Counted from the first letter of the stretch, positions 7,511-36,729 are shown. The stretch: DNA of 64,000 nucleotides from a virus (IMGVR_UViG_3300028800_000076:12205-76204); one strand, 5' to 3'. The notes: generated by a model not told the origin, from the letters alone. Numbers and translations: made by a program.

Positions 7511-8052
7511 TCGTCGGGTACGCTCGCGTCTCAACGACTGAGCAGAACCTGGACCTCCAGATCAAGGCCCTGAAGGAGGCGGGCTGTGAGAAGATTTACT
7601 CCGACAAAGCCTCCGGCAAGAATATGGACCGCCCAGAATGGGCGAAGTGCCGCAGGTATATCTCCACGGGAGATACTCTGGTCTGCTGGAAGCTTGATCG
7701 TGTTTCCCGCTCCATGCTTGATCTCATCACCACGGTGCAGTCGCTGGATGAGCGAGGCGTGGGCTTCAAGGTGGTGACCGCGCCTATCGACACCACCACA
7801 GCGCAGGGCCGCCTGATCTTCGGCATCTTCGCAGCACTGGCTGAGTTCGAGCGCGCCCTGATCCGGGAGCGTGTCCAGGCTGGCGTGAAGGCCGCAAAGG
7901 AACGCGGCGTCCAGTTCGGCAGGCCCCGCAAGGTCACCGTGGAGGTTCTGGAGCGCGCCAATGATCTGCTGGTGGCCGACCCCGAGATGACTGTACGCAA
8001 GGCAGCAGAGAAGCTAGGCGTCTCTAAGAGCGCTCTTTATCGGGCTCTCTAG
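7507..8052 (+). CDS. small serine recombinase (resolvase/invertase, Hin/Pin family)
   Basis: GYARVST catalytic Ser, KLDRVSRS, AEFERALIRER, GRPR and C-terminal HTH. Confidence 0.95.
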   Translation: MIVGYARVSTTEQNLDLQIKALKEAGCEKIYSDKASGKNMDRPEWAKCRRYISTGDTLVCWKLDRVSRSMLDLITTVQSLDERGVGFKVVTAPIDTTTAQGRLIFGIFAALAEFERALIRERVQAGVKAAKERGVQFGRPRKVTVEVLERANDLLVADPEMTVRKAAEKLGVSKSALYRAL

Positions 8053-9203
8053 GCGGCCTCCTGCCGCTTCTCCAGCGCATCACCCACCTTCTTGAAGGCT
8101 TCGGCCATGGCTTTCATATGGCTACGACTGGGATCGTAGGCACAAACCTCGAAGAGCATCAGCTTGGAGTTGACCTCTTCCGTGATCGGAAAGCTGCCGT
8201 GCCCCTTGAAGCGCTTGAAGGCCGGGAGGTTATAGAGCGGCTCCACATAGCCAGCACGCACCGGCACGCCCTCCGCCCTCAGAGCCTTCACTACCCAGTC
8301 GCGGTCTCTGACCACCTCAGCCGCCCACATATAATAGACGTGCTTGCAGCCCTCGCGCTGGATCGGCGGCATGATCCACGGAATGTCCTTGACCATGTGC
8401 GTTAGCTCTTCGGCCAGTTCGATGCGGCCTGTGATGATCGCCTCGCGCTTGGATAACTGCGCCAGGGCGATAGCGGCCGTGATCTCGGTCATCCGAAGAT
8501 TAAGACCCGGAACGACGGTATCAGCCAACTCAGAATGATTACGATATAGCCGCATCCGATCAGCCAGAACGTCGTTGTCAGTAACGCAGAGTCCTCCTTC
8601 TCCACATTGAATATGCTTATGCACATTAAGTGAGAACACACCAATATCACCCACAGTGCCAGCATACTTGCCGTCCTCCATGGCAAAGGGAGCCTGCGCA
8701 TTGTCTTCGATCATGATGGTCTTCGCGCCACAGTGACGCTTCCAGCGTGCCAACTCGGCTGGGTGGCCAAAGATGTTTGGCACGATGATAGCCCTGGTCT
8801 TGGTCCCAGGCACGCCATCCATATTGAAGGTCTTGGCTTCGATGTCATTGAACTTGATGTTCGCGCCCAGGAACGCTGGGGCAGCCGCTGTGGCGCTCAT
8901 GGTATAGGGCGATGTGATCACCTCATAACCCTTAAATACGCCTGCCGCCATGCAGGCCACCAGCAATCCTGACGTGGCGCTATTCACAGCCACCGCATGC
9001 TTAGAGCCGATCATATCCGCGAAGGTCTGCTCCAGCGCCTCGACACGCAGGCCGCCGTGTAGCTCGCCCCCCAGGTAACCGCTGAGGGGCCCAGCACGCA
9101 GCACGGATGTGGCCATGCTGATCTCCTCCGGCCCTATCGTGTTGAAGGGCCGGAGAGACTGCTTGATGGCCGCAGGACCGCCGTCGATGGCCAGAACAGT
9201 CAT
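8049..9203 (-). CDS. DegT/DnrJ/EryC1/StrS sugar aminotransferase (PseC-like)
   Basis: AVNSATSGL, IEDNAQA, FSLNVHKHIQCGEGG (PLP Lys). Start MTVLAIDGG overlaps the upstream stop. Confidence 0.9.
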   Translation of the reverse strand: MTVLAIDGGPAAIKQSLRPFNTIGPEEISMATSVLRAGPLSGYLGGELHGGLRVEALEQTFADMIGSKHAVAVNSATSGLLVACMAAGVFKGYEVITSPYTMSATAAAPAFLGANIKFNDIEAKTFNMDGVPGTKTRAIIVPNIFGHPAELARWKRHCGAKTIMIEDNAQAPFAMEDGKYAGTVGDIGVFSLNVHKHIQCGEGGLCVTDNDVLADRMRLYRNHSELADTVVPGLNLRMTEITAAIALAQLSKREAIITGRIELAEELTHMVKDIPWIMPPIQREGCKHVYYMWAAEVVRDRDWVVKALRAEGVPVRAGYVEPLYNLPAFKRFKGHGSFPITEEVNSKLMLFEVCAYDPSRSHMKAMAEAFKKVGDALEKRQEAA

Positions 9204-9628
9204 GATCTTTTCTCCAATGCAGCGATAGAACGCATGACATGAATGAGCGTTTCTGCTCGTTCTATCTGGCCCGCCCTCTTGGCTTCTCCAATCTCTTTGG
9301 AGAACTGTTTCTGTAGCAATCGCAGTGGGGGTCGCAGATAAGACAATCTCTGCGACCCCCTTCTCATCCCCCTTGATACCTGAGAGGAACGAACGCCGTG
9401 AGATGCACAGGTGTCTGCGTCGGCGTTTTCTGACGGCATAACCGTCAACACATCCAGCCACTGGGCTGTCAGTGTTCCTGCGGCCCGTTTAGCGATAGAC
9501 CGGGCCAGTTGCGGAGATGGTCGAAATTCAGGGTGAGCATCTGACGTATTTTTAATCGCACCTTCCACAGCGCGCAAGATGCGACGTTGCGATGGGGTAG
9601 CTCGTTTATAAAGCGAAACCATCGGCAA
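9200..9628 (-). CDS. hypothetical basic phage protein
   Basis: Fills the gap between pseB and the aminotransferase; has its own promoter. Confidence 0.55.
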   Translation of the reverse strand: MPMVSLYKRATPSQRRILRAVEGAIKNTSDAHPEFRPSPQLARSIAKRAAGTLTAQWLDVLTVMPSENADADTCASHGVRSSQVSRGMRRGSQRLSYLRPPLRLLQKQFSKEIGEAKRAGQIERAETLIHVMRSIAALEKRS

Positions 9629-9656
9629 AAGATAGCCCGAAATGGGTTAGTGTCAA
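9629..9656 (-). promoter_or_regulatory. promoter with operator in the spacer
   Basis: TTGACA-CTAACCCATTTCGGGC-TATCTT on the minus strand. Confidence 0.65.
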
Positions 9657-10507
9657 GTATCCTGGAGGGCCTGCCGTAACTCAGCCACGCTCATGCGCCG
9701 TGCCTTGTCGCTGCTGTTGCCCTTGGCCATGGATTCGTGGCGCTTCTCCCATGTCGGAAGCCCTGTGACACGCACCGGCACACCTAGCGCCTCCGCAAGA
9801 TCGCCCAGGCGGTAGGCTGGCAGTGTCGGGATGGCCAGTTCGCCACCCTTCATGGTTTGGATTGTGGATAGAACCAAGTCCACAGCCTCGGACATCCGCA
9901 TAAAGAATCTTGTGCATTCTAGATCGGTCACCGGAAGCACGGTCGCGCCCTTCGCAATCATGGCCCGCCACACGGGCACGACTGAGCCAGTCGAGTTCCA
10001 GACATTGCCATAACGGCAGGCAGCAAACCTGGGCCCCTTCCAGCCTGTGGTGTTGTTTGCGGCCAGGAAGATGCTCTCAGCCAGCGCCTTGGAGCAGCCA
10101 TAGGGGCTCACCGGCTCAAAGGCTTTGTCGCTGGAGAGCGCGACCACCTTCTTCACGCCAGCGTCTTGGGCTGCTTCGATCACGTTGATCGCGCCATCCA
10201 CATTGGTCTTGACCATTTCGACCGGATTATAATTACCGACCTCGATGCGCTTGAGGGCCGCAGCATGAACCACAACCTCGATACCTTCCATGGCCCGCCG
10301 TAGTCGGTCCCTGTCGCGTACATCTCCGATCATGAAACGAGTGATCTCAGAGCGGGCGCGAACCTTGAGTGCTTCAGCCTGTTGAAACTGTCGAAATTCC
10401 CCACGCGAGAAGACCACAATACGCTGGACGCTCAGGTCGAGCAGCAGCCGTCTCACAAAGGCGTCGCCAAAGGCTCCCGAGCCCCCCGTAATCAGCACGC
10501 TCTTCAT
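9653..10507 (-). CDS. pseB: UDP-GlcNAc 4,6-dehydratase (PseB/FlaA1 family)
   Basis: TGGSGAFG, IGDVRD, HAAALK, LSSDKA, YGCSK, RYGNV..STGSVVP. Confidence 0.88.
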   Translation of the reverse strand: MKSVLITGGSGAFGDAFVRRLLLDLSVQRIVVFSRGEFRQFQQAEALKVRARSEITRFMIGDVRDRDRLRRAMEGIEVVVHAAALKRIEVGNYNPVEMVKTNVDGAINVIEAAQDAGVKKVVALSSDKAFEPVSPYGCSKALAESIFLAANNTTGWKGPRFAACRYGNVWNSTGSVVPVWRAMIAKGATVLPVTDLECTRFFMRMSEAVDLVLSTIQTMKGGELAIPTLPAYRLGDLAEALGVPVRVTGLPTWEKRHESMAKGNSSDKARRMSVAELRQALQDT

Positions 10508-10761
10508 TTATTGGCTTTCTCCAGCAGAATATCGGCATGGCACGGCAGCGGTGAGCACCAGCACACCAAGTCCTTGCCCTTCAGATCATGTACCTCAGCG
10601 CAGACTAAGGCTTCGGAGAAGTGCTTGCGATACTTCTCGATGCATTCCTCGCGCGTGCCGTCCTTACCGACCACATAGGGGTTTCCCCACTTGGTTGGCC
10701 TGCCGACATAGACCGCGTTAGCAGGTCTATGCCTGTCCCGCATGTTCCAGACCTTAGGCAC
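10504..10761 (-). CDS. DUF4326 domain protein
   Basis: VYVGRPTKWGNPY...LKGKDLVCWCSPLPCHADIL. Confidence 0.85.
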   Translation of the reverse strand: MPKVWNMRDRHRPANAVYVGRPTKWGNPYVVGKDGTREECIEKYRKHFSEALVCAEVHDLKGKDLVCWCSPLPCHADILLEKANK

Positions 10762-11764
10762 TGATCATCTCCCAGGTTAGGGCTTGGCCGCGCTTAAGTC
10801 TCCGGATCGTGTGCTTGCCCAGAATTTTGGGAAGCTCTTTTGGGGGAAGTCCATAGGCCGGACGGATCGAGCGGACATTCTCATTGGTGAATATCTCTCC
10901 GGCCTCCATGTTCTCCACGACATAGAGCGAGCGGCGGAACTGCTTTGATGATTCTTGACTGGTTGGTGCCCTAGGCGTGTTTATCGCAGTCCAGGTATCG
11001 CGCACAGTCTTGCACATACCTTTGAATTCTTCGGGCTCCATGCTGAATTCAGCGTCCTCGATATCATCCTCACGCGAGACGCAAAAATGCTTCTCGATAA
11101 TAGATGCACCAAGCGCAGTCGCAGCAATAGGTATCTCCACGCCCACGGTATGGTCTGAAATTCCTGTCACAAAATGCGAACGTCCGATCTTTCTCAAATC
11201 GGCCTCAGCCACAGGCGTAGGATAGCCACTAATGCACGCTAGCGCCGTGGCATTATTTCCTGCCGCCACCATTGCGGCATCAATCTCCTCCTCAGAGGCC
11301 ATGCCAGTCGAGATAATGAGCGGCTTTCCTGTTCTGGCCACAGCCTTGATCAAAGGAATATCCACAATCTCCATGCTGGCTATCTTATAGGCTGGGCACT
11401 CCAAGCTCTCTAAAAGCTCAAGCCCGGTCTTATCAAAGACAGAGGAGAAAACTGTCTGGCCATATTGTTTGGCGAGATGGAAAATACTCTCTACCAAGCC
11501 GGGAGGTGTCTGGGCCTTGCGATAAAGTTCGTGAAGCTTGCGGCCCTTCCATGGGCCCTCCTTAATGATAAAGTCGGACCCATCACTATCAATTGTTAGA
11601 CTATCAGCGGTATAGCACTGAATTTTGACGGCATCTGCTCCTGCTCCAGCAGCTAGGCCCATCAGATAGGCTGCTTTCTCAAACGAGCCCTGATGATTGC
11701 CGCTAATCTCCGCAATCATATATGGAGGTTCGCCAGGACCAATCTTGCGGCCGTTAATGATCAC
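10754..11764 (-). CDS. pseI: nonulosonic acid synthase (PseI/NeuB family, C-terminal SAF domain)
   Basis: IAEISGNHQG, ADAVKIQ, KIASMEI, IISTGMA, GISDHT, IEKHF, FRRSLYV...RSIRPAYGL. Confidence 0.9.
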   Translation of the reverse strand: MIINGRKIGPGEPPYMIAEISGNHQGSFEKAAYLMGLAAGAGADAVKIQCYTADSLTIDSDGSDFIIKEGPWKGRKLHELYRKAQTPPGLVESIFHLAKQYGQTVFSSVFDKTGLELLESLECPAYKIASMEIVDIPLIKAVARTGKPLIISTGMASEEEIDAAMVAAGNNATALACISGYPTPVAEADLRKIGRSHFVTGISDHTVGVEIPIAATALGASIIEKHFCVSREDDIEDAEFSMEPEEFKGMCKTVRDTWTAINTPRAPTSQESSKQFRRSLYVVENMEAGEIFTNENVRSIRPAYGLPPKELPKILGKHTIRRLKRGQALTWEMISA

Positions 11765-11955
11765 GAAGGTATCTCTCCGAGTTTCATCATTTGATCGGCA
11801 ATGAACCGATCATTCTGATTAATTTGCCGCAATACAGTCCTTGTCTCTTCGGGGGCCTTCTCAAGCGCGATGCGCAAAAGCTCCATCCACAGCCCATTAT
11901 TGTGACGACGTGTCTCCTCTATGAGACCGATGGTTGTGTGTTGCGCAATGTTCAT
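11761..11955 (-). CDS. hypothetical protein
   Basis: ATGA overlaps at both ends. Confidence 0.65.
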   Translation of the reverse strand: MNIAQHTTIGLIEETRRHNNGLWMELLRIALEKAPEETRTVLRQINQNDRFIADQMMKLGEIPS

Positions 11956-13967
11956 GACACTCTCACGCTTGCAGTCGCCGCAATGGATGGCCCAACGATA
12001 TCACTCTTCACCTTGTCTTCGGCCACAGCCTTCTTGATCACACCCAGCGTCCGGTCATAGGCGTTTACGATGCGGCGCATGTCGGCTTCATTGTGGGCGT
12101 ACATGAAGTTGTGGCTGGCGATGATGAGCACGCCGTTCTTGATCATCTCCTGCATGTACAACGTCTTGATATCCTCAGCGGTGTTCATGCCAACGGCTAT
12201 GAAGTTCACGCGCGAGAAATAAGAACCCGTGATGCGCAGGCAGTGGATGCCGTGCTTTTCCTGCATGAAGGAGACCAGCGTGGAAATCTCGCGGTTCTTC
12301 GCCATCAGCGCATCATGCACGGGCTCACGCTCCATCTTCTCGATAACTGCGAGCGAGGCGGCGAGCGAGAGCGTCTCGCCAAAGAACGTGCCGCTGAAGC
12401 AGACCTGATCCATCAGCTTCATGTACTTTTTCTTACCGACCAGGGCGCTGATCGGCATGCCGTTGCCCATGGCCTTGCCGAAGGTGGCCAGATCAGGGGT
12501 AACCCCCCAGACTTTCTGCGCTCCCCCCAGGCCAAACCGGAATCCCGTGATGATCTCATCAAAGATCAGCAGCGTGCCAGTGAGATTACAGAGAACGCGC
12601 AATCTTGCGAGGAATTCTGGATCGGTCTCCGGCTCCACAATGACGCAGGCAAAGCGCTTGGTGACCAAAGCCTTCTCGGCAAACGTGATATCGCCATGCC
12701 GCATGACGGTGGTGAAGTCGCGGATGCCTTCGGGCACGCCGATGTTGCGCACCGGGTCCCGCGCGATGGCCCAGTCCATCCAGCCGTGATAGCCCGCACT
12801 CAGAATATGGTCGCGGCCGGTCATGGCCCTGGCAAGCCTCACCGCAGCGCTGGTGACATCCGTGCCGTTCTTGCCAAAGCGCGCCATCTCAGCGCATGGA
12901 ATGTAACGATTCAGCTTCTCGGCCAGCTTATGCTCTAGATCGGTGGCGAGACTAAAGCTGATCCCACGATCAAGCTGCATACGGATAGCACGATCAACAT
13001 CAGGGTCCCGATGACCCAGAATAACTGGGAGCAAACCACCCACAAGGTCGACATAATCGTTCCCATCAACGTCATAGACGTGTCCTCCGCTGCCGTGTGT
13101 GACAAATAAGGGCGACTCCACGGGATACTGGAGCTTGCTCTTGGAGTAGGTCTGCGTACCCAGCGGAATGAGGCGCTCCGTGACGCCCAGCATGGCATGG
13201 GAGACCGTGTGCTCGCGCTTCACCGGCTCCTCAACCACAAGCTCATCCCAGAAGCGCTCATTGCGCGGATGATACTTGTTGAGATTGCGATACTCTGGGT
13301 TCTTATCCAGAAAGCGTTTGATGCCCAGATACGAGAAATCCAGGCACTTTTCAGCCAGTATCTGACACAGATGATAGTCATCCTGGGTGTCGAGCACCCA
13401 TCGCTCCTTGTGCATGTCCGGAAGCGGGCAAGTCAGGTTCACGATCTTGTAGCGCATCCTGTTACGCAGGATGTATTGCGTCACGGTGTTGCGATCAGAG
13501 GGTCTGGTGGCCTTTTCGTTGGCCTCCTTGAGTGCCTTAACCGTCATCACCTCGCAGTCGAGTCCGTCAGGCCATGTCGGCGGGTCGATATTGGAGGCGT
13601 AGTCGGCTCCTGTGGCCTCTCGTAGGGCCGCAACCTCGCCCACAACGCGCGGATCAATAAAGGGGCAATCCCCTGTCAGACGAATTACAACATCCGCCTC
13701 CGCAGCGATGGCTGCTCCTGTAAATCTAGACAAAACATCAGTCTCGCTACCCCTGAAACACTTAATGCTTTTCTTTTTGCACCACTCTTCAATTACATTG
13801 TCTTGTTCGAGAGTGCTGGTGGCTATCCACACCTCGTTGACGCCGGGAATGCTATATGCAGACCCCGTTACCCAATCTAAAACAACACCCCCGCCAAGGG
13901 ACATCAACACTTTCCCCCTCAGACGAGTGCTGCCAATCCTTGCAATGACAATCGCAACCGTTTTCAC
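11952..13967 (-). CDS. SpsF/KdsB-like cytidylyltransferase fused to a class III (GSA-AT-like) aminotransferase
   Basis: N-half: ARIGSTRLRGKVL, RGSETDVLSRF, RLTGDCP. C-half: DVDGNDYVD, KNGTDVT, LIFDEIITGFR, FGKAMGNG. Confidence 0.9.
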   Translation of the reverse strand: MKTVAIVIARIGSTRLRGKVLMSLGGGVVLDWVTGSAYSIPGVNEVWIATSTLEQDNVIEEWCKKKSIKCFRGSETDVLSRFTGAAIAAEADVVIRLTGDCPFIDPRVVGEVAALREATGADYASNIDPPTWPDGLDCEVMTVKALKEANEKATRPSDRNTVTQYILRNRMRYKIVNLTCPLPDMHKERWVLDTQDDYHLCQILAEKCLDFSYLGIKRFLDKNPEYRNLNKYHPRNERFWDELVVEEPVKREHTVSHAMLGVTERLIPLGTQTYSKSKLQYPVESPLFVTHGSGGHVYDVDGNDYVDLVGGLLPVILGHRDPDVDRAIRMQLDRGISFSLATDLEHKLAEKLNRYIPCAEMARFGKNGTDVTSAAVRLARAMTGRDHILSAGYHGWMDWAIARDPVRNIGVPEGIRDFTTVMRHGDITFAEKALVTKRFACVIVEPETDPEFLARLRVLCNLTGTLLIFDEIITGFRFGLGGAQKVWGVTPDLATFGKAMGNGMPISALVGKKKYMKLMDQVCFSGTFFGETLSLAASLAVIEKMEREPVHDALMAKNREISTLVSFMQEKHGIHCLRITGSYFSRVNFIAVGMNTAEDIKTLYMQEMIKNGVLIIASHNFMYAHNEADMRRIVNAYDRTLGVIKKAVAEDKVKSDIVGPSIAATASVRVS

Positions 13968-14593
13968 TAGATTTTTCCCTCTAAAAGAGCCGTGACAGCT
14001 TGTTGTCCCGAGAGACCGAGTATTGATGTGAGCTTTTTGAGCTTGGCATAGCTCAATCCAAGTCTTTGGGAGGCGACTTTCATCGGAACCATTTCTTCTT
14101 CAATGGCAATCCATTGTGTCCAATTCCGATTTATCGACTGCGTATACTCATCAGCCCAACGCACATTCCCTGGTTCATAATTTCCGTTTGGGTCTACCCG
14201 GTCTAATTCTAGTTTTTCTGGGCATTCTCCCATATAATTAAGAAAATTTTCAAACTTCATCCACGGCTCATAAATCGTAATGCCTCGTCCGTGGTAGTTT
14301 GGATAATCCTTACAATTTGGATTTGTGCAGCGCTCTATCATCTTAGCCCAGGATTTATATGTTCTGGACATTCTTCCTCGTCGAGAATGGCCATGTATTA
14401 CACGAGCCGATCCGTCCAACTTGAGGCATCCACATGATTTTGTATGGCCTCTATTCAGCAGTTTTCCCATAGCGATATGGGGCTTACCGCAGTCACAAGA
14501 ACAAAGCCACGCAGATCGGCCTTCGACATTCTTCCACCGCTCTATAACCGTTAAACGGCCGAATCTCATCCCAGCCAACCGCAGCGCCCTCAC
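13967..14593 (-). CDS. free-standing HNH homing endonuclease
   Basis: RFGRLTV...WLCSCDCG...SCGC, RGITI, LDRVDPNGNYEPGNVRWA; AT-rich; GTG start overlaps the upstream stop. Confidence 0.85.
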   Translation of the reverse strand: MRALRLAGMRFGRLTVIERWKNVEGRSAWLCSCDCGKPHIAMGKLLNRGHTKSCGCLKLDGSARVIHGHSRRGRMSRTYKSWAKMIERCTNPNCKDYPNYHGRGITIYEPWMKFENFLNYMGECPEKLELDRVDPNGNYEPGNVRWADEYTQSINRNWTQWIAIEEEMVPMKVASQRLGLSYAKLKKLTSILGLSGQQAVTALLEGKI

Positions 14594-15459
14594 CGATATC
14601 CTCCCATTTCGCGCACCTTCAGACATATCTCCAGCACGTCCAGGGCCTCCTGTCCCGTGCACCCGATTGTCTCCTTGCCATCGATCCTATCGATAAAGGC
14701 CTGCATCTCGTCCTTGTAGTCCTGATCGTAGCTGCCTTCGGTGTCCCAGTAATGAAGAGCGCCTTCTTCAGCTTCTGGGACATGCAATGTAGCTCTGCGC
14801 TCCGGCAGATTTACTTCGATCCAGCCTCCTGGGCCGCCAATGGCGAAGCCGCGCCGCTCTGGCTTCGTCACATAATCCAGGTGGATGTGGCTGATGACGG
14901 AGCGCTGATGCGACAACAGAATATCGGCCGCATCGTCATGCTCGCCACCGCTTACGGCCGCCGAGTGAACCTTCGCAGGGCCCAACAGATAAAGGGCAAG
15001 ATCAATCTCGTGGCTCCAGTTCAAGACTACGCCATCACGTAGATACTGCGGCTTATCGTTATACTGAGCACAGCAGAATGTAGCCCATGTGGGAGAGCCT
15101 ATAAGCCCACCATCCAGCCATGCCTTGGCTTGCTTTACCGCGCTATTAAAGCGCTGGTTATAGCCGCACATCAATGGATAGGATTTGCCTCCAAGGATAA
15201 TCAGTTGATCCATAGTCGCGGCTATGGGCTTCTCTACAAAAACAGGCTTATCCCTTGCCATAAGCAAGTGAGCGAAATGGTGGGTTGTCGGACTTGCAAT
15301 AACCACAGCATCAGACTTCTCGATCAACTCTTGCTCTGACTCAACAGAGCGCCCCATGCTGTCATCCGGATCGTAGACATAAATGGTATGCCCAAGCTCA
15401 AGAAGATTATGAGCATGCCGCCTGCCAATCGACCCAAAGCCAATGATACCAACCTTCAC
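14590..15459 (-). CDS. Gfo/Idh/MocA NAD(P)-dependent oxidoreductase
   Basis: GIIGFGSIGRRH, IASPT..H, VFVEKPI, GYNQRF, SHEID. Confidence 0.9.
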   Translation of the reverse strand: MKVGIIGFGSIGRRHAHNLLELGHTIYVYDPDDSMGRSVESEQELIEKSDAVVIASPTTHHFAHLLMARDKPVFVEKPIAATMDQLIILGGKSYPLMCGYNQRFNSAVKQAKAWLDGGLIGSPTWATFCCAQYNDKPQYLRDGVVLNWSHEIDLALYLLGPAKVHSAAVSGGEHDDAADILLSHQRSVISHIHLDYVTKPERRGFAIGGPGGWIEVNLPERRATLHVPEAEEGALHYWDTEGSYDQDYKDEMQAFIDRIDGKETIGCTGQEALDVLEICLKVREMGGYR

Positions 15460-16088
15460 GACTCCCTCCTCGGCCAGCCGCGCGTTAGGTCCTTGCGCAG
15501 CGTAAAGACACCCTCGCGGCCTTCGCCCTTGCCGAAGATCACAAACTGCTCCAGCAGGTACGCAGGATTGGCGAGCCACAGATTGTGGTATGGCATCTTG
15601 TATGTGGTGATGCGGGAGTCGTGGGCGTAGTCCTTGGTGTGCGGCTCCTCTGGCATAAAGTCGTGGATAACCAGAACGCCTTTATCTTCGAGCACGCGAT
15701 CCACCTCGGAGACGATCCTGAACAGGTCCTCGCGGTCCACCAGATAGAGAAAAAAGCCCAGGACCACGAGATCGAAGCTACCTGGGCCGTAGCCCAGCAC
15801 ATCAGCGCTGCCGACACGCAGGCCTAGCTCACGATAGCGCCTGCGGCCCTCCTCAATGGCATCCCAGGATAGGTCGCATCCCTTACAGGATTCGGGTCCA
15901 TAGCGGGTGTGTAGCTCATCGAGCCGCCAGCCATTGCCGCAAGCCACCTCCAGAATGTTCTTGGGCTTGATGCGGTCGTTGGAGAAGATTTCCCTGAGCA
16001 CAGGATCATCAACGCGCGACTTTCCACGGTTACGCTTATGCCAATTGTTACCTTCCGACTCTCTAACGATTTCCGATTGCTTGCCCAC
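15456..16088 (-). CDS. class I SAM-dependent methyltransferase
   Basis: ILEVACGNG motif I, GCDLS, FDLVVLGF, VLVIHDF. Confidence 0.85.
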   Translation of the reverse strand: MGKQSEIVRESEGNNWHKRNRGKSRVDDPVLREIFSNDRIKPKNILEVACGNGWRLDELHTRYGPESCKGCDLSWDAIEEGRRRYRELGLRVGSADVLGYGPGSFDLVVLGFFLYLVDREDLFRIVSEVDRVLEDKGVLVIHDFMPEEPHTKDYAHDSRITTYKMPYHNLWLANPAYLLEQFVIFGKGEGREGVFTLRKDLTRGWPRRES

Positions 16089-16644
16089 GGCTGATCCTCC
16101 CCATGTCTTCCACGAACTCCACAGGGGTTTTCCATCCGGCCGGGAGCACTATCTTTTCTCGATCTTTAACCCGGTGCAAGGTGCCTTTACCCTCTTGTTT
16201 AATCGCCGGTATCTCTTTCCCTGCCACAATCCAGGACCAAACAGACTCAAGGGCAAAAAGGGCGTGATCCTGGAGGTGCCGATAGCTGCTTTCGAGGGTT
16301 TCTTTTTCAGGGTTGAGGAACCTAACCTTGAGTTGGAGCGCGATATCACCTGTGTCCAGACCTTCATCGATGTGGTGGACTGTTACGCCTTTGGGGGTGT
16401 CATCGAACCAGGACCATAGGTTGCAATCTGCCCCGCGATTCCACGGGAGCAATGACCAATGGACATTAAAAATACGGCCGCGATACTTCTCGATCACCTC
16501 CGGCTTGATGATGTGCCTGTGGCCATAGCTGATCACGTAGTCGCAATCAACGAAGGGCTGGTTATGGGCCTGCGTGAGAATAGTGTGATCCTTGAAGATA
16601 TGCTGGATCAGGTCTGGTCTTGTGGTGAGGAGCATGACCTTCAT
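16063..16644 (-). CDS. N10-formyl-THF-dependent formyltransferase (sugar N-formyltransferase type)
   Basis: NVHWSLLPWNRG, GVTVHHIDEGLDTGDI. Confidence 0.88.
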   Translation of the reverse strand: MKVMLLTTRPDLIQHIFKDHTILTQAHNQPFVDCDYVISYGHRHIIKPEVIEKYRGRIFNVHWSLLPWNRGADCNLWSWFDDTPKGVTVHHIDEGLDTGDIALQLKVRFLNPEKETLESSYRHLQDHALFALESVWSWIVAGKEIPAIKQEGKGTLHRVKDREKIVLPAGWKTPVEFVEDMGRISRGQAIGNR

Positions 16645-17204
16645 GGGAAGAACTTTGCAAAGTGGACGAGAGCGATAGGTCTGCCGTTCTCGGACAGGAA
16701 GTGGTCATAGCGCACGCCATCCGGCTGCATGCCAGCAGCCAGCGCTAGCCTCACCATGGCGCGGTTTGATGTGTAGCACCCAGCCTCGATCTTGTGCATG
16801 TGGCACTGCTTTTCGAGAAAGGTCATGACTGCGGACCATGCCTCACGGCCTACGCCCTGGCCCCAATGCTCCTTGCCAATAAGGATGCCCATATTGGCGA
16901 TGCGGTTATGCTCATCGATGTGGGCTGAGATAGTCCCTATATCGAAACGGCCTTGATGTTTGATAAGCCAGATGTGCGAGTTGGCCGGAAAGCTATTGAG
17001 GTAATTATGCTGGCTTTCCTCTGTGTGCTTGCTATGCCGCTGTTCGGAGTATCGGACATTCTCTGGATCATTCAGCCATGCCACCTGGGTGGCAGTCACG
17101 AGGCTGGCACGGTGTGGCTCCAGTGTGAGCCGCTCAGTGGCTAATGTAGCTCGTCGGGGAGCGTCCCGCTGTCCAGACTTCGAAACCCCTTTTGCTTTAG
17201 CCAT
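16641..17204 (-). CDS. RimJ/RimL-type GNAT N-acyltransferase (PseH-like)
   Basis: TERLTL, WLNDPENVRY, GILIGKEHWGQGVG, NRAMVRL. Confidence 0.85.
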   Translation of the reverse strand: MAKAKGVSKSGQRDAPRRATLATERLTLEPHRASLVTATQVAWLNDPENVRYSEQRHSKHTEESQHNYLNSFPANSHIWLIKHQGRFDIGTISAHIDEHNRIANMGILIGKEHWGQGVGREAWSAVMTFLEKQCHMHKIEAGCYTSNRAMVRLALAAGMQPDGVRYDHFLSENGRPIALVHFAKFFP

Positions 17205-17428
17205 TCACGCGATTCCATCCGGACTTTGAGAGGCAGAGACAGGCACGCCGTAATGGCCTTGTGCATGCCGATCTCAGCCGTTTTATGATCAGTGGGGCCG
17301 GGATAGCCTGGGTTATGCTTCTTCTGAAAAGCAATAACCCGGTCTACATCCTTCGACATGAGGACTTCATCGCGCTCCTTCGTGAAGGCCGCGATGGCTT
17401 CCTCAAGGTCGATCTGCTTCTCGGTCAT
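17141..17428 (-). CDS. hypothetical protein
   Basis: TAATG coupling to the vWA gene. Confidence 0.55.
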   Translation of the reverse strand: MTEKQIDLEEAIAAFTKERDEVLMSKDVDRVIAFQKKHNPGYPGPTDHKTAEIGMHKAITACLSLPLKVRMESREWLKQKGFRSLDSGTLPDELH

Positions 17429-18033
17429 TACTGCTTCAGCTTCTGTTTCTCTTCGTCTGTGAAGGCCATCGCCTGACCAGTCGCACCATAGGTGCCGCGC
17501 TTGCTGGCCATAGTCGATAGGGTTGCTCCATAATTTCGCACGGAGGACTGCACAGTGCTGGCAGCAAGGTTGCCGTAGCTTGCGGCTTGCCCCGCATTAT
17601 CGAAGTTTGCGCCCAGGAAGATCACCTGCCAGTTCTTGGCGCGGCATGCATCGAGCAGCTTCTTCGCCTGCTCCACCGAGAGTTCGCGACTGTTATTCTC
17701 GTGGCCATCCGTCATGATGATAATGGCCACCTTGTCGTAGCCGCCTGCGTTGGCGAGGGCGACGATCTTGCCGGTGGCGTCATTCAGCGGGGTCATACCG
17801 CGAGGCGGGGCCTCGGTCGGATCGACTGCTTTCCAGGTTTGCGGCGTGATGCGGTCCCGCAGAATCTGGAAGTCCAGTTTCCCGCTTTCGCTATCAAAGA
17901 CGGCCAGCGTCACGCCGGTATCCACTTTGTCTTCGGCCAGCTTCTTGACGTAGGTATTCACCGAGTTGATGGCCTCAGTCCACTGAGCTTCCATGGAGCC
18001 TGAGCGGTCGAGAAGGATGAAATCATGTTGCAT
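17428..18033 (-). CDS. vWA domain protein
   Basis: LLDRSGSM, GMTPLNDA, IMTDGHEN, FLGAN. Confidence 0.9.
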   Translation of the reverse strand: MQHDFILLDRSGSMEAQWTEAINSVNTYVKKLAEDKVDTGVTLAVFDSESGKLDFQILRDRITPQTWKAVDPTEAPPRGMTPLNDATGKIVALANAGGYDKVAIIIMTDGHENNSRELSVEQAKKLLDACRAKNWQVIFLGANFDNAGQAASYGNLAASTVQSSVRNYGATLSTMASKRGTYGATGQAMAFTDEEKQKLKQ

Positions 18034-18034: not shown

Positions 18035-18229
18035 TTACTTTGCTCCTTTTGAGCGTTTGGTCGTGGTGACCGGAATGGTTTCCTTGATGTGCCGCAGCAA
18101 CTCGAAGGTGAGTTGGCACAACATCAGGATGGTATGGGCATCCGGGCTGTAACCCCCAAGGCCCTGCCGGGTGGATATCTCCTTGTGCAGGATCAGTTCG
18201 TAGCGTTCGCAGTCCTCGCGTGACAGCAC
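18035..18229 (-). CDS. hypothetical protein
   Basis: Tightly packed in the operon. Confidence 0.5.
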   Translation of the reverse strand: MLSREDCERYELILHKEISTRQGLGGYSPDAHTILMLCQLTFELLRHIKETIPVTTTKRSKGAK

Positions 18230-18582
18230 TAGGCCTTCTCCATCGGATGCTCGCGCTGCATGTCAATGGCGCGCTGGAACCAGCTTACGACGGTCTGCTG
18301 GTCGGTGAGATTATTATGATTCACAATATCCCAACGGGGATCATGACTGCCCTTTAATCCCTGTGGGACGGCGGCATGAAGCGCAAGAATATGTGGGTCG
18401 CATAATTCTAGGTTGTTGGCCCCAAGAATTCCTCTCACGGCATCCAAAGCACCCAGGGCACAGTGAGCATACCCACCCTCTTTACGAGGGGTTTTCCGAA
18501 CATGCTTTGCGTAACCGCCCGGGCGCGCGATCAGGTCTCGCGCCTTCTCCAAATTCTCCACCACTCTCGTCACATCAACCAT
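18229..18582 (-). CDS. DUF6197-like protein (paralog 1)
   Basis: LEKARDLI...HCALGAL...HNN...VVSWFQRAI. Confidence 0.65.
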   Translation of the reverse strand: MVDVTRVVENLEKARDLIARPGGYAKHVRKTPRKEGGYAHCALGALDAVRGILGANNLELCDPHILALHAAVPQGLKGSHDPRWDIVNHNNLTDQQTVVSWFQRAIDMQREHPMEKA

Positions 18583-19431: not shown

Positions 19432-21081
19432 ATGAACCAAGCCCTTCTCCTCGCAGCCGCAGCCAAGAAATACAGGGAACTGGCTGAGCGAGAGCAGTGT
19501 GAAGATGATCTCTACAAGTTCCTTCAGGCAGGCTGGAAGTACATTGACCCCGCCCCTTTTGTCGGCGGCTGGCATCTGGAGGCCATCGCAGAGCACCTGG
19601 AGGCGGTCACCAGGGGCCAGATCAAGCGGTTGCTGATCAACGTGCCGCCCCGCTCCTCCAAAAGCTCCCTGTGCTCTGTGGCATGGCCAGCCTGGACCTG
19701 GGCGCAGTCAGTGCAGGGTCCTTGCTCAGGCCCTCACGTCCAGTTCCTCAGCGCGTCCTATGCGCAGACCCTGGCATTGCGTGATTCGGTCAAGAACCGC
19801 CGCCTGATCGAATCGCCATGGTTCAAGAAAATCTGGGGCGAGCGATTCCAGATGACCTCGGACGTGAACACCAAGGGCCGATTCGAGAACAACAAGGGCG
19901 GGTACAGACTCGCAACGTCTGTAGACGGGGCCCTAACTGGGGAAGGCGGACAGGTCATTTTAGTGGATGACGCCCATAATGCCACCGAGATCGAATCAGA
20001 CTTGGTGCGCGAATCCACCATCATGTGGTGGGACGAGGCCATGAGCACCCGCCTCAATGATCCGGCCACAGGTGCCTTTGTGGTGATCATGCAAAGGCTT
20101 CACCAGGAAGACTTAACGGGCCACATCAAGGACAAGGACCCCAACAACGACTGGACGTGGCTGATGCTGCCCATGGAGCACGACCGCTCCAGGCACTGCA
20201 TCACCTACGCCAAGAATGAATACGGCGAGAAAGAACAACTCTGGGAGGACCCTCGCGAGGAGGAAGACGAGCTTCTGTGCCCCACCCGCTTTCCCCGCGA
20301 GCAGGTGGACCGCCTCAAGGCCCAGCTAGGCCCCTTCGCAGCGGCGGGCCAACTTCAGCAGAGCCCCACGCCCAGAGGCGGCGGTATCATCAAGGAGGAG
20401 TGGTGGCAGGACTGGGAGGAGGATTCCTACCCGGTATTTGAGTACCTCATTGCCTCTGTGGATACGGCCTACACCGAGAAAGAGGAAAACGATCCCAGCG
20501 CGCTGACCATCTGGGGCGTCTTTCGCGAATACCGCACCGGCAACATGAAGATCATGCTGGTCTGGGCCTGGGAGGGCAGATTCGAGCTACACGACCTCGT
20601 GGAGGAAATCCTAACCACTTGTACGGTCAGTCCTATTTCCAATACACGCCAGGAGAAGCACGCAGGCAGGCCACGCTTTCCGGTCCATCTTTTATTGGTG
20701 GAATCCAAGGCTTCGGGATTGTCGGTGGGGCAAGAACTCTACCGGCTCATTGCGGGCAATGCGCCCTTCAACATCCAATTCCCCAACCTCAATAAGGGCC
20801 GATACACCCAGGACAAGGTGGCCCGGCTTTATTCGGTCCAGCATATCTTTGCGGACAAGATGGTCTACGCCCCACTGGGTAGAACCTTTGTGGACAAGGT
20901 GATCGATCAGGTCTCGGCCTTCCCCAAGGTCTCCCACGACGACTTGGTGGATACGGTCTCCCAGGCGCTCAAGTACCTCCGAGACACCGGCATCTTGGTG
21001 CGTCGGGACGAGCAGGCACTAGATTTAGATAGGGAAATGGCTTACCGTCCCAAGCAATTACCATTGTACCCAACCGGCTAG
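19432..21081 (+). CDS. terL: terminase large subunit
   Basis: INVPPRSSKS Walker A, ILVDD Walker B, IMQRLH, ASVDTA, VESKASG, DKVAR, HDDLVDT nuclease motifs. Confidence 0.95.
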   Translation: MNQALLLAAAAKKYRELAEREQCEDDLYKFLQAGWKYIDPAPFVGGWHLEAIAEHLEAVTRGQIKRLLINVPPRSSKSSLCSVAWPAWTWAQSVQGPCSGPHVQFLSASYAQTLALRDSVKNRRLIESPWFKKIWGERFQMTSDVNTKGRFENNKGGYRLATSVDGALTGEGGQVILVDDAHNATEIESDLVRESTIMWWDEAMSTRLNDPATGAFVVIMQRLHQEDLTGHIKDKDPNNDWTWLMLPMEHDRSRHCITYAKNEYGEKEQLWEDPREEEDELLCPTRFPREQVDRLKAQLGPFAAAGQLQQSPTPRGGGIIKEEWWQDWEEDSYPVFEYLIASVDTAYTEKEENDPSALTIWGVFREYRTGNMKIMLVWAWEGRFELHDLVEEILTTCTVSPISNTRQEKHAGRPRFPVHLLLVESKASGLSVGQELYRLIAGNAPFNIQFPNLNKGRYTQDKVARLYSVQHIFADKMVYAPLGRTFVDKVIDQVSAFPKVSHDDLVDTVSQALKYLRDTGILVRRDEQALDLDREMAYRPKQLPLYPTG

Positions 21082-28043: not shown

Positions 28044-28050
28044 AGAGCTA

Positions 28051-29650: not shown

Positions 29651-30565
29651 ATGCCCGTAGCTCTTTCGCAAATCCGCGATTTGCTGCTCCCAGGCCTCTG
29701 GGGAATAAGCGGTAAGTATCCTATGATTGAGAGGCAGTGGCCAAAAGTTTTTCGGCAAACCGAATCCAACATGGCGCTCGAACGTCGCGCGGCCATGAGG
29801 TATCTCGGCTACGCGCAGCTTAAGCAGGAAGGCGCTCCGACTTCCTTCGATAACGCGGCTGGCCAGCGCTACATCTACAATGCAGAGCACTTTGAAATTG
29901 CTCTCGGCTATGCCATCACCCGTAAGGCCATCGACGACAACCTCTATAAGTCAGAGTTTGGTCCCAATAACGACGGCCTGATGGAGAGCTTCAAGGAGAC
30001 GGAGGAGCTTTACGCTGCCAACGTCTTCAATCAGGGCTCGACTTATAATCCGGCTATCGGCGGCGACGGCGTGGCGCTCTTTAGCACCTCGCATCCGACT
30101 GATGCGGCCACCATCTCCAACATCGCATCTCCGGCCGTGGGTCTGAACGAGACCTCACTGCTCAATGCGCTCATCACCATCCGCACCACTTGGCTTGATA
30201 ACGCGGGCCTCAAGATTCACGCCCGTGGCCGCAAGGCTGTGGTGCCTCCGAATCTGGAGCCGATTGCGCTGCGACTGTTCCGCAGCGAGTTGCGCCCCGG
30301 CACGGCCAACAACGATGTGAACGCCATTCTGGGCATGAACGAATCCCTCAAGGAGGGATTCCTGACATGGGACTATCTCACGTCGTCCTTTGGTTGGTTC
30401 GTTCTTACCAATCATGAAGGCCTGATCTTCTTCAACCGCAAGCCGTATGAGACGGATATGTCGGTTGAGTTTACGACTGACAATCTTCTGGTGAAGGGCT
30501 ATCAGCGATACGTGCCGACCTACTATGATTGGCGCGCGGCCTGGGCTTCTTACGCCACGTCGTAA
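29651..30565 (+). CDS. major capsid protein (Mu gpT-like, HK97 fold)
   Basis: LLPGL, ALGYAIT...DDNLY, GDGVALFSTSHP, VVPPNL, WFVLT, DWR. Confidence 0.88.
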   Translation: MPVALSQIRDLLLPGLWGISGKYPMIERQWPKVFRQTESNMALERRAAMRYLGYAQLKQEGAPTSFDNAAGQRYIYNAEHFEIALGYAITRKAIDDNLYKSEFGPNNDGLMESFKETEELYAANVFNQGSTYNPAIGGDGVALFSTSHPTDAATISNIASPAVGLNETSLLNALITIRTTWLDNAGLKIHARGRKAVVPPNLEPIALRLFRSELRPGTANNDVNAILGMNESLKEGFLTWDYLTSSFGWFVLTNHEGLIFFNRKPYETDMSVEFTTDNLLVKGYQRYVPTYYDWRAAWASYATS

Positions 30566-30591: not shown

Positions 30592-31578
30592 ATGACGATT
30601 AGTGCATGGACTGGCCCAGTAGTCAGCTTTGGTACTGTCCTTAATTCCACCAATGGCCTGACGGGCACGAGTGCGGATAACAATCCGCAGAATGGCCCGT
30701 CCATGTTCGCTAATGGCGGGGCGCTTCTCGATCCGCGTGCTGCCTACCAGTATTTCCCTGGCGCGGGCATCTCGACGCCGGTCTATGGGTTTATGTACGG
30801 CGATGCGACGGTGGACTATGCTCCGTCTTCGGCCTCGTCCAATGCCTTTGCGGTTAGCTCTGCAACCCAGCCCGGCGCTAGCTCTGCGATCACGCTCACG
30901 CCCTCGGCGGCCAAGGGCACATTTCTCACCACCATTGTGGCTCCTGAGAATGGCCAGACTGTTTCCGTTATCGCCATCGACTCGACGGCCGCATTCCTGA
31001 GCTTTGGTTCAGACGCCAACGTGCGCGTTTGGAACCCGACCGCAGGCACGGGCCGCTGTATCTCCATCACCACGTCTTCGTCTGGTGACCAAGGAAGCTG
31101 GACTATCGCTGGCCGCGATATGTACGGCTATAAGATGACTGAAGTGATCGCCACGTCGAGCGTCACCTTCACCACCCAGAAGGCCTTCAAGTATCTGAAT
31201 GCCAATGGCGCGATTACGGCCTCTTCGGTTGTCACCAGCACGGGTGTTAGCGTCGGTCTATCCGATACCTATGGCATGCCATTCCGTGTGAACCATGCAG
31301 GTGTTGTGAACCTCCTTCTGGCGATGTCGTCTGGAGCGGGCGGCGGCTTGCTCCTGACAACGGTAGCCCCGACTTCTGGTAACCTCGTCTTCGGCTCGAC
31401 TGCTCTCACGGCCACTGCGACAACTGCCGATCCGCGCGGCACCTGGGCCTCTTCGCTGGCGTCCGGTAGCTCGAATCGCATGCAAATCCAGGTGACGCCG
31501 ACTGCGGCGGCCCTGGCCTCGATGACCAGCAGCAACATGCAGCCGTTGTTCGGCTATCCACAATTCTCTTCGGTCTAA
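30592..31578 (+). CDS. Ser/Thr-rich virion protein
   Basis: Follows the MCP; GRDMYGYKMTEVI...KAFKY, ADPRGT. Confidence 0.75.
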   Translation: MTISAWTGPVVSFGTVLNSTNGLTGTSADNNPQNGPSMFANGGALLDPRAAYQYFPGAGISTPVYGFMYGDATVDYAPSSASSNAFAVSSATQPGASSAITLTPSAAKGTFLTTIVAPENGQTVSVIAIDSTAAFLSFGSDANVRVWNPTAGTGRCISITTSSSGDQGSWTIAGRDMYGYKMTEVIATSSVTFTTQKAFKYLNANGAITASSVVTSTGVSVGLSDTYGMPFRVNHAGVVNLLLAMSSGAGGGLLLTTVAPTSGNLVFGSTALTATATTADPRGTWASSLASGSSNRMQIQVTPTAAALASMTSSNMQPLFGYPQFSSV

Positions 31579-31592
31579 GGAGCACCTAGACA

Positions 31593-32465: not shown

Positions 32466-32471
32466 CCTCAC

Positions 32472-35174: not shown

Positions 35175-35455
35175 TAGACCTTCACCCGGCCCCGATATTG
35201 GCTGCCTATCAATCAGCCCCGTCAAACTATGATTATCCCTATGCTGGAATGGTGATCGAGTTCACAGACACGGCTGAGAATGTTGAGCATCATTGCGGGA
35301 AGAATGCGGGAGCCTGCACGCTGATACTGCCGAATTTCAGAGGAGATAAGTGTTATATCCTGTTGCCGTTCGTGGGCCGTGGCGGGGTATCCCTCGCCAC
35401 CCAGGAATTGCTTCGCCATCACGAGGTGGCCCACTGTAATGGGTGGAGGCATTGA
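35171..35455 (+). CDS. small protein with HExxH motif
   Basis: LLRHHEVAHCNGW. Confidence 0.6.
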   Translation: MIDLHPAPILAAYQSAPSNYDYPYAGMVIEFTDTAENVEHHCGKNAGACTLILPNFRGDKCYILLPFVGRGGVSLATQELLRHHEVAHCNGWRH

Positions 35456-35848
35456 GTGGCTGTCAATTATAGCCAGACTGCAATCAACGACCGGCTTTTG
35501 GGGGTTATTGCGGCCATTGATGGGGGCGCGACCAACGGGAGCCTGTTACTGATGGCGGGCTCCATATTGGTATCCACAATTCAATTGGCTAGACCTTGCG
35601 GGACTGTGAACGGCGGGGTACTAACCTTTGCGGGTACTCCGCTCCTGGACCCCTCGGCCGCAGCGACTGGAAACGTGGATAGCGCCATCATTCAAGACGG
35701 GAATGGTTCCACCATGGTCTCCGGCCTGACCGTGGGCATCCCCCTTTCAGCCAGCGTCGATATCGTCATCAGCAACGGCCTGAACAGCACCCTGGTTACG
35801 GCAGGCCAGACCGTCGAGCTTCTTGCAGCACAAATAACGGGATCGTAA
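35456..35848 (+). CDS. virion structural protein
   Basis: Beta-rich; TAATG coupling to the next gene. Confidence 0.65.
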   Translation: MAVNYSQTAINDRLLGVIAAIDGGATNGSLLLMAGSILVSTIQLARPCGTVNGGVLTFAGTPLLDPSAAATGNVDSAIIQDGNGSTMVSGLTVGIPLSASVDIVISNGLNSTLVTAGQTVELLAAQITGS

Positions 35849-36729
35849 TGGCAAAACTGACCGAAACCTTTAATGATCGCGCTCGTGCCAATGGTGGCAT
35901 GATCCACATTGAGCCGCCGCATGAACCCCTGACCAATGAACCGTACCCCCCGCTTGTATCGGTTACAGCCGGGCTGATAACTCCCCAGCCAGTTCCGGAA
36001 GCCAAGCCACAAGAGCTTAAGGTGGCGCTGATCGGGACTGCGCCCTCCTCGCGGCTCCTGGCCCCCTTCAACGACAACTCCTGGCAAATCTGGGCCTGCT
36101 CGCCGGGCAACATGAACACCATCCCCAGGTGGGATGTCTGGTTCGAGCTTCACGGCAATCTGCTCTGGGAAGAGAACAAGGGCTATGGCGAGCCTTATAT
36201 CAACTGGCTCAAAACCCATAGAACGCCGGTCTATATGCAAGACCAGCGTTATTGTCCCAATGCCTCGACCTTTCCCATGAAGGAGATGGTCCAGGAGTTC
36301 GGTAGGGACTTCTTCACGTCAAGCTTTGCCTGGATGATGGCCTTCGCCATCCACAAAGGGGCCAAGGAGATCGCCATGTATGGCATCGATATGGCGTCCC
36401 GTGACGAATACATCCTTCAGCGGCCCGGCTTCTACTTCTTCCGGCACCTCGCCCAGCAGCGCGGCATTAAGGTGTCAGCGCCTCATGAATCTGATATTAT
36501 GCAGTCGCCTGGGCTTTATGGTTATTCGGACGTGACCCCGATGGGCCGTAAAATCCTGGCGCGCGAGCAAGAGATCAACAAGAGGCGGGACGGCATGCGG
36601 GCCGAGCTTCAGCGTCTTCAGCAGAACCTGACCTATCTCGATGGTGCCTCGGAAGACATCGACTATTTTAAGAGTATCTGGATGGGCCAAGGGTCCGCCG
36701 TGCCCGAAGGGGGGCTAAACAATGGCTAA
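35848..36729 (+). CDS. putative CMP-nonulosonate transferase (Maf/GT42/GT29-like fold)
   Basis: KVALIGTAPSS...QIWACS...DVWFELH resembles sialylmotif-L / IxGxGPS; FTSSFAWMMAFAIHKGAKEIAMYGIDM resembles sialylmotif-S / GxxEIxLxGxD. Confidence 0.65.
   Translation: MAKLTETFNDRARANGGMIHIEPPHEPLTNEPYPPLVSVTAGLITPQPVPEAKPQELKVALIGTAPSSRLLAPFNDNSWQIWACSPGNMNTIPRWDVWFELHGNLLWEENKGYGEPYINWLKTHRTPVYMQDQRYCPNASTFPMKEMVQEFGRDFFTSSFAWMMAFAIHKGAKEIAMYGIDMASRDEYILQRPGFYFFRHLAQQRGIKVSAPHESDIMQSPGLYGYSDVTPMGRKILAREQEINKRRDGMRAELQRLQQNLTYLDGASEDIDYFKSIWMGQGSAVPEGGLNNG

Follow-up and report, generated by a model that had tools for sequence, protein, structure and literature searches.

A candidate virus-only nonulosonate transferase of sialyltransferase-type fold, linked to a phage-encoded sugar pathway and possibly acting on virion proteins

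The bacterial Maf proteins are soluble, GT-A-like enzymes that use the cytidine monophosphate (CMP)-activated nonulosonic acids CMP-pseudaminic acid (CMP-Pse) or CMP-legionaminic acid (CMP-Leg) as donor and modify serine and threonine residues of a structural protein before its assembly; their central GT-A domain resembles glycosyltransferase families 29 and 42 (GT29 and GT42), and both sugars need CMP activation before transfer (bioRxiv 10.1101/2022.03.25.485807). Among viruses, the spike protein VP4 of HRPV-1 carries 5-N-formyl-legionaminic acid as a terminal sugar, with no viral pathway, the host making and attaching the sugar (PMC6137143). Mycobacteriophages carry genes for glycosyltransferases presumed to act on the capsid (PMC11256854), and two reports describe prophage genes that modify nonulosonates in Acinetobacter capsules (PMC12053666, PMC6586298). 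Here we analyze 64,000 nucleotides (nt) of an IMG/VR virus (IMGVR_UViG_3300028800_000076, bases 12205-76204 of a 76,204-bp record, CheckV completeness 100%); this whole stretch is called the window, and positions are counted from its first base. The window holds a cluster of genes for a nonulosonic (sialic-acid-like) sugar (8049-17204, minus strand) and, at 35848-36729, a gene for a putative CMP-nonulosonate transferase. The record is a tailed phage, with terminase, portal, and capsid genes. We give a probability of about 0.55 to the reading that CMP-nonulosonate made by the phage is transferred by this enzyme to Ser/Thr proteins of its own virion. As the original prediction for this DNA had supposed, no description of a tailed phage with both a nonulosonate donor pathway and a transferase was found in the literature searched.

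Fold and distribution of the putative transferase

The gene on which the argument turns is the following:

35848-36729, plus strand: putative CMP-nonulosonate transferase, GT42/Maf fold, 293 amino acids (aa) (AlphaFold2 model, Foldseek, co-occurrence, adjacency, and fusion)

The translational coupling predicted for this open reading frame (ORF) is real: its ATG and the upstream TAA share one base (TAATG), and the ATG of the downstream gene sits 8 nt before its stop. Residues 1-56 of the protein form a conserved N-terminal peptide with a Pro-rich linker, residues 57-230 the predicted catalytic core, and residues 231-282 a long C-terminal helix. It has no membrane segment and is soluble. The conserved core of the family corresponds to residues 57-281, and most members begin directly at the first Rossmann strand, without the N-terminal peptide. 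Only in a lineage of 75-kb genomes is this peptide (K-[LI]-T-P-T..D...GG) conserved and followed by a variable Pro-rich linker (window 35848-36015); it may be a docking or targeting element.

An AlphaFold2 model built from an alignment of 63 diverse relatives reached a mean predicted local distance difference test (pLDDT) score of 89. The original prediction had named CstII, Maf, and GT29 as the folds to compare, and Foldseek against the PDB placed GT42 first, followed by the other two. Each of the 15 best listed matches was a GT42 sialyltransferase, namely CstII, Cst-I, or the enzyme of Pasteurella multocida (E 1.9e-6 to 3.7e-4, probability 1.00), with CstII the best at 1.9e-6 and about 190-215 aligned columns for the GT42 matches. 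After these came thiamin pyrophosphokinase (ranks 17-18), Maf 5mu5 (3.9e-3), and the human GT29 enzyme ST6GALNAC2 (5.3e-3). The family segment TSS..wM.A.AI..G..eI.LyG.D aligns to residues ~130-160 of CstII, part of the nucleotide-sugar site, and S158, G179, and D181 of the phage protein, like its His102, are conserved: the first three are invariant or nearly so in the family alignment, and the invariant His102 is at most a putative counterpart of the CstII general base, a role for which Glu187/Tyr188 are also candidates.

At the sequence level, the protein had no match in Pfam, PHROGs, or NCBIfam, and phmmer against PDB sequences returned chance matches to Bak only. A family profile compared with PDB sequences ranked GT42 first at a non-significant E of 0.4-0.9. 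The ESM Atlas gave no more than a lead to Maf (score 0.80, the family being found on 16% of cluster members). The earlier label of a Maf/GT42/GT29-like protein thus stands by fold (Foldseek) and falls by sequence (no Pfam match; hhalign probability of 3% against Maf). Because the sialyltransferase fold is shared while membership of GT42 and Maf by sequence failed, the protein is best described as belonging to a new, minimal, virus-only family with a predicted sialyltransferase-type fold.

The family is large. A word-indexed search retrieved 876 proteins at E<=0.001, and an exhaustive search 3,538 clusters at 50% identity. In species genomes it occurred in only 2 of 185,579, both times on contigs of metagenome-assembled genomes that gave no hint of a host, so the family is essentially virus-only. 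A search of sequencing runs gave one rhizosphere DNA run with a 0.05 share of words and listed no RNA run; it is not counted as evidence here. When two family members were compared by tblastn with catalogued phages, the sole match was Microcystis phage Mvi-Yong1342-1; no other cultured phage has the family.

The sugar gene cluster and its link to the transferase

Eight sugar-pathway enzymes had been predicted on the minus strand between 8049 and 17204, and Pfam and NCBIfam searches recovered every one of them. The cluster, with two interleaved genes, reads as follows:

8049-9461, minus strand: DegT/PseC-like pyridoxal phosphate aminotransferase, 470 aa, with an N-terminal extension of ~130 aa (PF01041, 8.9e-61; best NCBIfam model TIGR03588 PseC, 7.3e-50)
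9653-10507, minus strand: PseB-like UDP-N-acetylglucosamine (UDP-GlcNAc) 4,6-dehydratase, 284 aa, short C-terminus (PF02719, Polysacc_synt_2, 1.9e-74; best NCBIfam model TIGR03589 PseB, 3.8e-91)
10504-10761, minus strand: DUF4326 protein between PseB and PseI (PF14216, 3.5e-28)
10754-11764, minus strand: pseudaminic acid synthase PseI, NeuB and SAF domains (TIGR03586, 384.2 bits, cut-off 340.25; PF03102, PF08666)
11952-13967, minus strand: fused protein of 671 aa, CMP-sugar synthetase (PseF-type cytidylyltransferase, aa 4-194; PF02348, CTP_transf_3, 1.6e-22) and class III aminotransferase resembling glutamate-1-semialdehyde (GSA) aminomutase (aa 286-620; PF00202, Aminotran_3, 1.4e-46)
13967-14662, minus strand: HNH homing-type endonuclease inside the sugar cluster (phrog_374, 1.7e-58)
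14590-15579, minus strand: GFO/IDH/MocA NAD(P) sugar oxidoreductase, tailoring (PF01408, PF22725; UDP-GlcNAc 3-dehydrogenase-like, 3.5e-18)
15456-16088, minus strand: class I S-adenosylmethionine methyltransferase, tailoring (PF13649, PF08241, ~1e-13)
16063-16644, minus strand: formyltransferase-like protein covering profile positions 79-172 only, the C-terminal half (PF00551, Formyl_trans_N, 5.7e-18)
16641-17204, minus strand: GNAT N-acetyltransferase, candidate PseH (PF13302, 1.3e-21; TIGR03585 PseH weak, 8.1e-5)

The synthase scores above the PseI cut-off and reaches 227 bits, well under its PseI score, on the NeuB_NnaB model, which points to a pseudaminic-type rather than a neuraminic-type product. 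The other assignments fall below the cut-offs of their NCBIfam models, with 305 bits against 408 for PseB, 170 against 424 for PseC, and 22.7 against 93 for PseH; the PseB-like and PseC-like proteins nonetheless belong clearly to their families. With its additional oxidoreductase, methyltransferase, and formyltransferase-like genes, the cluster is predicted to make a non-standard derivative, and the interleaved HNH endonuclease and DUF4326 genes make it a mosaic rather than a clean bacterial operon. In most related records, open frames of 673-701 aa lie over the CTP_transf_3 match; their C-terminal parts were not scanned, and their lengths are consistent with the same cytidylyltransferase-aminotransferase fusion. 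Megablast of the sugar cluster found no match among catalogued phages.

The cluster had also been described as devoid of a glycosyltransferase, flippase, or polymerase, and this was borne out. Families GT2, GT4, and GT28_C gave no match at E<=0.1 anywhere in the 76,204-bp record, leaving the ORF at 35848-36729 as the sole candidate transferase.

Three independent kinds of evidence, namely co-occurrence, adjacency, and fusion, tie this ORF to the donor pathway, and taken together they support the link well. For co-occurrence, IMG/VR phage records carrying the transferase family were each searched whole; 19 of them, including the source record, were at least 90% complete. The co-occurrence that the original prediction called for was found in both related and unrelated phages: CTP_transf_3 was present in 18 of these 19 near-complete carriers and NeuB/PseI in 17, and PseB-like genes were found in all five distant complete family-carrying records tested. 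For comparison, tblastn against 50,697 catalogued phage records matched the source PseI in three and the cytidylyltransferase domain in none. The positive records cover at least three architectures: a 65-77-kb lineage with an SU10-type portal, genomes of 83-87 kb, and genomes of 51-53 kb with direct terminal repeats (DTR). Fragments resembling the last have T7-type portals (PF12236, seen in locus L131). A related-locus scan with the single source PseI gave no match.

Adjacency is seen in loci L123, L131, L157, and L196, where PseI is followed on the same strand, 2-4 kb downstream, by the family gene; CTP_transf_3 is also present in L123 and L131, and a methyltransferase in L131. In L131 and L157, the latter a 53-kb DTR genome, the order on one strand is nonulosonate genes, a HisF-like gene, further genes, the transferase, and the large terminase. 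The transferase of L131, L157, and L196 is followed by an ORF of 526-542 aa, which in L157 is recognized by a large-terminase model; the start of this ORF is overlapped by the transferase stop in L131 and L196 and lies 2 nt beyond it in L157. The HisF-like genes (PF00977; L131 4502-5254 at 1e-61, L157 1852-2625 at 7e-54) lie beside unannotated ORFs of 374 and 233 aa and are presumably of the kind used, in amidotransferase/HisH/HisF sets, to place acetamidino groups on nonulosonates. Their presence in these sugar clusters suggests that phage lineages probably make different derivatives.

As to fusion, a CTP_transf_3 domain (aa 13-181) is combined in the 492-aa protein P0212 with a full-length family domain, 38% identical to the 35848-36729 protein. 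Two sequences, found on separate contigs, make up the cluster of P0212; a scan of viral contigs with the fusion gave no match, and a search for longer family proteins found no fusion above 514 aa. Such fusions are rare, and we therefore count this one as supporting and not decisive.

Several further features were noted in and around the sugar cluster. Relatives G003, G007, G009, G020, and G021 carry a short NeuB-like gene (frames of 215-251 aa, e.g., in L034-L036) that matches only profile positions 1-120 and ~173-235, so that they lack the middle part of that fold. At the edge of the cluster, a small serine recombinase (Resolvase and helix-turn-helix domains, 181 aa, PF00239, 4.5e-46) is encoded at 7507-8052 on the plus strand; it converges on the PseC-like gene, with which it shares 4 nt at the 3′ ends (8049-8052), and might be either a mark of the acquisition of the cluster or a DNA invertase. 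A VWA-domain protein (17428-18033) and a DUF6197 protein (18229-18582), both on the minus strand, lie between the cluster and the divergent structural operon. At 2638-3228 on the plus strand there is a weak match to a small terminase (Terminase_2, 3e-4); the sugar cluster separates it from the large terminase, which lies ~16 kb further downstream.

Candidate acceptors and alternative explanations

The surroundings of the transferase gene bear on its acceptor. The relevant features are:

19432-21081: large terminase (phrog_38, 5e-86)
21663-24335: SU10-type portal (PF23899)
29651-30565, plus strand: major capsid protein, anchoring the structural module (phrog_371 major head protein, 7.4e-11; 72-85% identity among relatives)
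30592-31578, plus strand: Ser/Thr-rich (27%) all-beta protein adjoining the capsid gene, candidate acceptor (S+T content; AlphaFold2 pLDDT 71; kept beside the capsid gene in relatives)
35456-35848, plus strand: 130-aa protein, 20% S+T, conserved upstream neighbor whose stop overlaps the transferase start (no family match)
36722-37255, plus strand: 177-aa Ser/Thr-rich (25%) protein, conserved downstream neighbor overlapping the transferase stop by 8 nt (virus-only family)
41746-43767, plus strand: virion structural protein, downstream anchor of the module (phrog_3287, 6.2e-54)

The transferase was predicted to lie between S/T-rich virion genes. The richness is real, as Ser and Thr make up 20-32% of the neighboring ORFs compared with 10% of the transferase and 8-13% of the terminase, portal, and major capsid protein. 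The immediate neighbors are called virion proteins only from their place between the capsid gene and the 41746-43767 gene and from a conserved order. In the 75-kb lineage this order is fixed (capsid gene, 30592 homolog, further genes, 35456 homolog, transferase, 36722 homolog), and the transferase, with 56-64% identity, is the second most conserved protein of the module after the capsid protein. The protein at 30592-31578 may be a novel head decoration or fibre protein. An Atlas search with the 36722-37255 protein gave a lead to DUF6143 only.

The proposed mechanism would begin with the conversion of UDP-GlcNAc into a CMP-activated pseudaminic-type nonulosonic acid by the phage PseB, PseC, PseH-like GNAT, PseI, and PseF domain, the PseG step being supplied by the host or by an unrecognized phage protein. 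The oxidoreductase and the class III aminotransferase would add an extra amino group, with N-formylation or methylation to follow; such further tailoring of the sugar, predicted from gene content, is probable. The soluble 293-aa protein would then use the CMP-nonulosonate as donor, and the Ser/Thr-rich virion proteins would be O-glycosylated in the cytoplasm before or during assembly, as flagellin is by Maf. Since the transferase is expressed inside the head-tail operon, virion proteins are the most likely acceptors, although on gene position we would put that assignment at about even odds. The place of the family gene in other lineages and in the Microcystis phage, at the head of the late operon and adjoining the terminase, also speaks for a virion acceptor. 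Equally balanced, in our judgment, is the broader proposal of a portable, virus-only sugar-coat module, in which a donor pathway and a minimal enzyme of sialyltransferase fold, from a new family, have spread among unrelated tailed phages and O-glycosylate the phages' own virion proteins with an acidic sugar of bacterial type.

A number of observations weigh against this reading. With regard to the enzyme, the template modeling scores (TM-scores) against GT42 are modest (0.38-0.48), the fold class also holds pyrophosphokinases such as thiamin pyrophosphokinase, and none of the 63 aligned family members matches Pfam. The protein was tried as a Pfam-type GT42 member and rejected, the family model being unmatched and the PDB profile E being that given above. 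It was likewise tried as a Maf and rejected: PF01973 had no match, and hhalign, set to compare the family alignment with 14 Maf domains from proteobacteria, gave a probability of 2.95% (P 0.015) over 57 columns that include the same TS...G.D motif. With regard to the donor, the system had been called self-contained, which overstates it: PseG is missing from the whole record, in which neither TIGR03590 (at E<=1) nor PF04101 (at E<=0.1) found a match, and five other complete relatives lack it too; the encoded pathway is thus one step short. Three carriers also lack parts of the pathway, Microcystis phage Mvi-Yong1342-1 having the family gene without a cytidylyltransferase, G026 having it without NeuB and CTP_transf_3, and G013 without NeuB; there, host CMP-sugars would have to be drawn on, or the enzyme be otherwise used. 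In addition, a single broad lineage accounts for much of the co-occurrence, which could be due in part to common ancestry. With regard to the acceptor, the immediate neighbors have no Pfam or PHROG family match and no recognizable virion fold, the model of the 30592-31578 protein has no significant PDB match, and tail fibres are commonly rich in Ser/Thr whether glycosylated or not. The closest solved enzymes, those of GT42, act on lipooligosaccharide. Finally, since the family gene of other phages lies beside sugar genes and terminase and not among capsid or tail genes, the argument from position for a virion acceptor is specific to one lineage.

The alternative that survives best is a host acceptor. 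The phage-made CMP-nonulosonate could go to a host structure, such as the core of lipopolysaccharide or lipooligosaccharide, the capsule, flagellin, or pilin, and so remodel the surface of the infected cell, blocking superinfection or the sticking of progeny to debris. CstII, Cst-I, and the P. multocida enzyme all sialylate lipooligosaccharide, Maf modifies flagellin, and in the T7-like relatives the gene belongs to the sugar cluster and not to the capsid or tail genes; two reports also document phage-encoded modification of host capsules that contain nonulosonates (PMC12053666, PMC6586298). However, the transferase has no membrane segment, no other glycosyltransferase (GT2, GT4, and GT28 searched), flippase, or polymerase is encoded, and the gene is always in, or at the head of, the late operon. 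The module also moves among phages whose morphogenesis genes are unrelated, a pattern more readily accounted for by an acceptor that the phage brings along. No integrase was seen among the ORFs scanned (a part of all ORFs), the sole recombinase being the small serine resolvase, which makes a long-term conversion of the host surface unlikely. Taken together, we regard a host acceptor as unlikely, while ranking it above the explanations that follow.

It is less likely again that the transfer of this sugar is not the task of the 35848-36729 protein. The protein would then use another donor, for example CMP-3-deoxy-D-manno-oct-2-ulosonic acid (CMP-Kdo), or be a nucleotide-binding or pyrophosphokinase-type enzyme, and the cluster would be an auxiliary module feeding host glycan synthesis. 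The missing Pfam match is in keeping with this, as are the thiamin pyrophosphokinase, SteA, and YcfA nucleoside triphosphate-binding proteins among the weaker fold matches and the three records that have the family without a complete phage pathway. Yet the best fold matches are all sialyltransferases, and co-occurrence (17-18 of 19), adjacency, and the fusion to a cytidylyltransferase all connect the protein to this donor. Moreover, the genome has no alternative transferase, so that the sugar would otherwise be without a phage-encoded user.

No enzyme that modifies DNA is known to us to draw on a CMP-nonulosonate donor or to have the GT42/Maf fold. A role of the sugar as a hypermodification of phage DNA against restriction is very improbable: hypermodification of DNA with diverse glycans by phage glycosyltransferases has been described (bioRxiv 10.1101/2023.12.21.572611), and the family gene lies directly upstream of the terminase in several phages, but the word nonulosonic is absent from that report, no 5-hydroxymethylpyrimidine pathway was seen among the ORFs scanned, and an MT-A70 methyltransferase is the only DNA-modification gene seen.

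That methyltransferase gene lies upstream of the structural region together with replication genes and AAA+ ATPase genes. Four AAA+/STAND-like ATPase genes are found in the early region, all on the minus strand (977-2263 and 5940-7136 in the window; 4519-5802 and 6316-7809 in L199); four such paralog-like genes are an unusual number for one 76-kb phage. A single tRNA gene, tRNA-Arg(TCT), is located at 61597-61673 on the plus strand.

Comparison with known systems

If the reading of a phage that glycosylates its own virion is true, these tailed phages would be the first known to carry genes for both the donor and the transferase needed to decorate the particle with nonulosonate, and tailed phages would display a self-made sialic-acid-like sugar. 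Such a coat would bear on the charge and stability of the virion surface, on adhesion to mucus, biofilm, and soil matrices, on recognition by host lectin-like receptors, and on immune recognition of therapeutic phages. The enzymes would form a new, compact family of nonulosonate transferases (a core of ~225 residues, ~3,500 clusters at 50% identity) that could serve glyco-engineering, and phage pathways with unusual tailoring genes and without PseG may reveal new nonulosonate chemistry. The hypothesis is open to direct testing with recombinant proteins, without phage culture.

The best structural matches of the phage protein are the GT42 enzymes CstII, Cst-I, and that of P. multocida (PDB 1ro7, 1ro8, 2p2v, 9c08). 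Both share an N-terminal G-x-x-P-S strand-loop and the TS...G.D nucleotide-site motif, and gene context implies that the phage protein would use a CMP-nonulosonate donor as well. It differs in being only ~16-18% identical to them, in matching no Pfam model, that of GT42 (CST-I) included, and in having an extra C-terminal helix of 50 residues and, in this lineage, a disordered N-terminal extension. The acceptors of GT42 are lipooligosaccharide sugars, whereas those proposed here are proteins.

We propose Maf (PF01973, MAF_flag10; Magnetospirillum, PDB 5mu5) as the working analogy, since it has a GT-A-like sialyltransferase fold, is soluble, and is partnered with a pathway for pseudaminic or legionaminic acid. 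However, Maf proteins are ~650-880 aa long (in 301 proteobacterial genomes most of their open frames have 700-890 aa) and have three domains, of which the flanking ones bind the acceptor, whereas the phage protein has one domain and a helix in 293 aa. The acceptor of Maf is Ser/Thr of flagellin, and the phage has no recognizable flagellin. The donor pathway resembles the bacterial one for CMP-pseudaminic acid in its PseI, which scores above the cut-off, and in its PseB, PseC, GNAT, and PseF-type domain; it differs in the absence of PseG, in the fusion of the cytidylyltransferase to a class III aminotransferase, and in the extra tailoring genes.

Actinophage glycosyltransferases are, as far as is known, ordinary UDP-sugar enzymes. 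In contrast to HRPV-1 and the actinobacteriophages, the virus described here would have genes of its own for the nonulosonate donor pathway as well as for a dedicated transferase. It is plausible that protein glycosylation with CMP-nonulosonates is the known kind of system to which this locus belongs, and that what is new is its move into phages, carried out by a new enzyme family.

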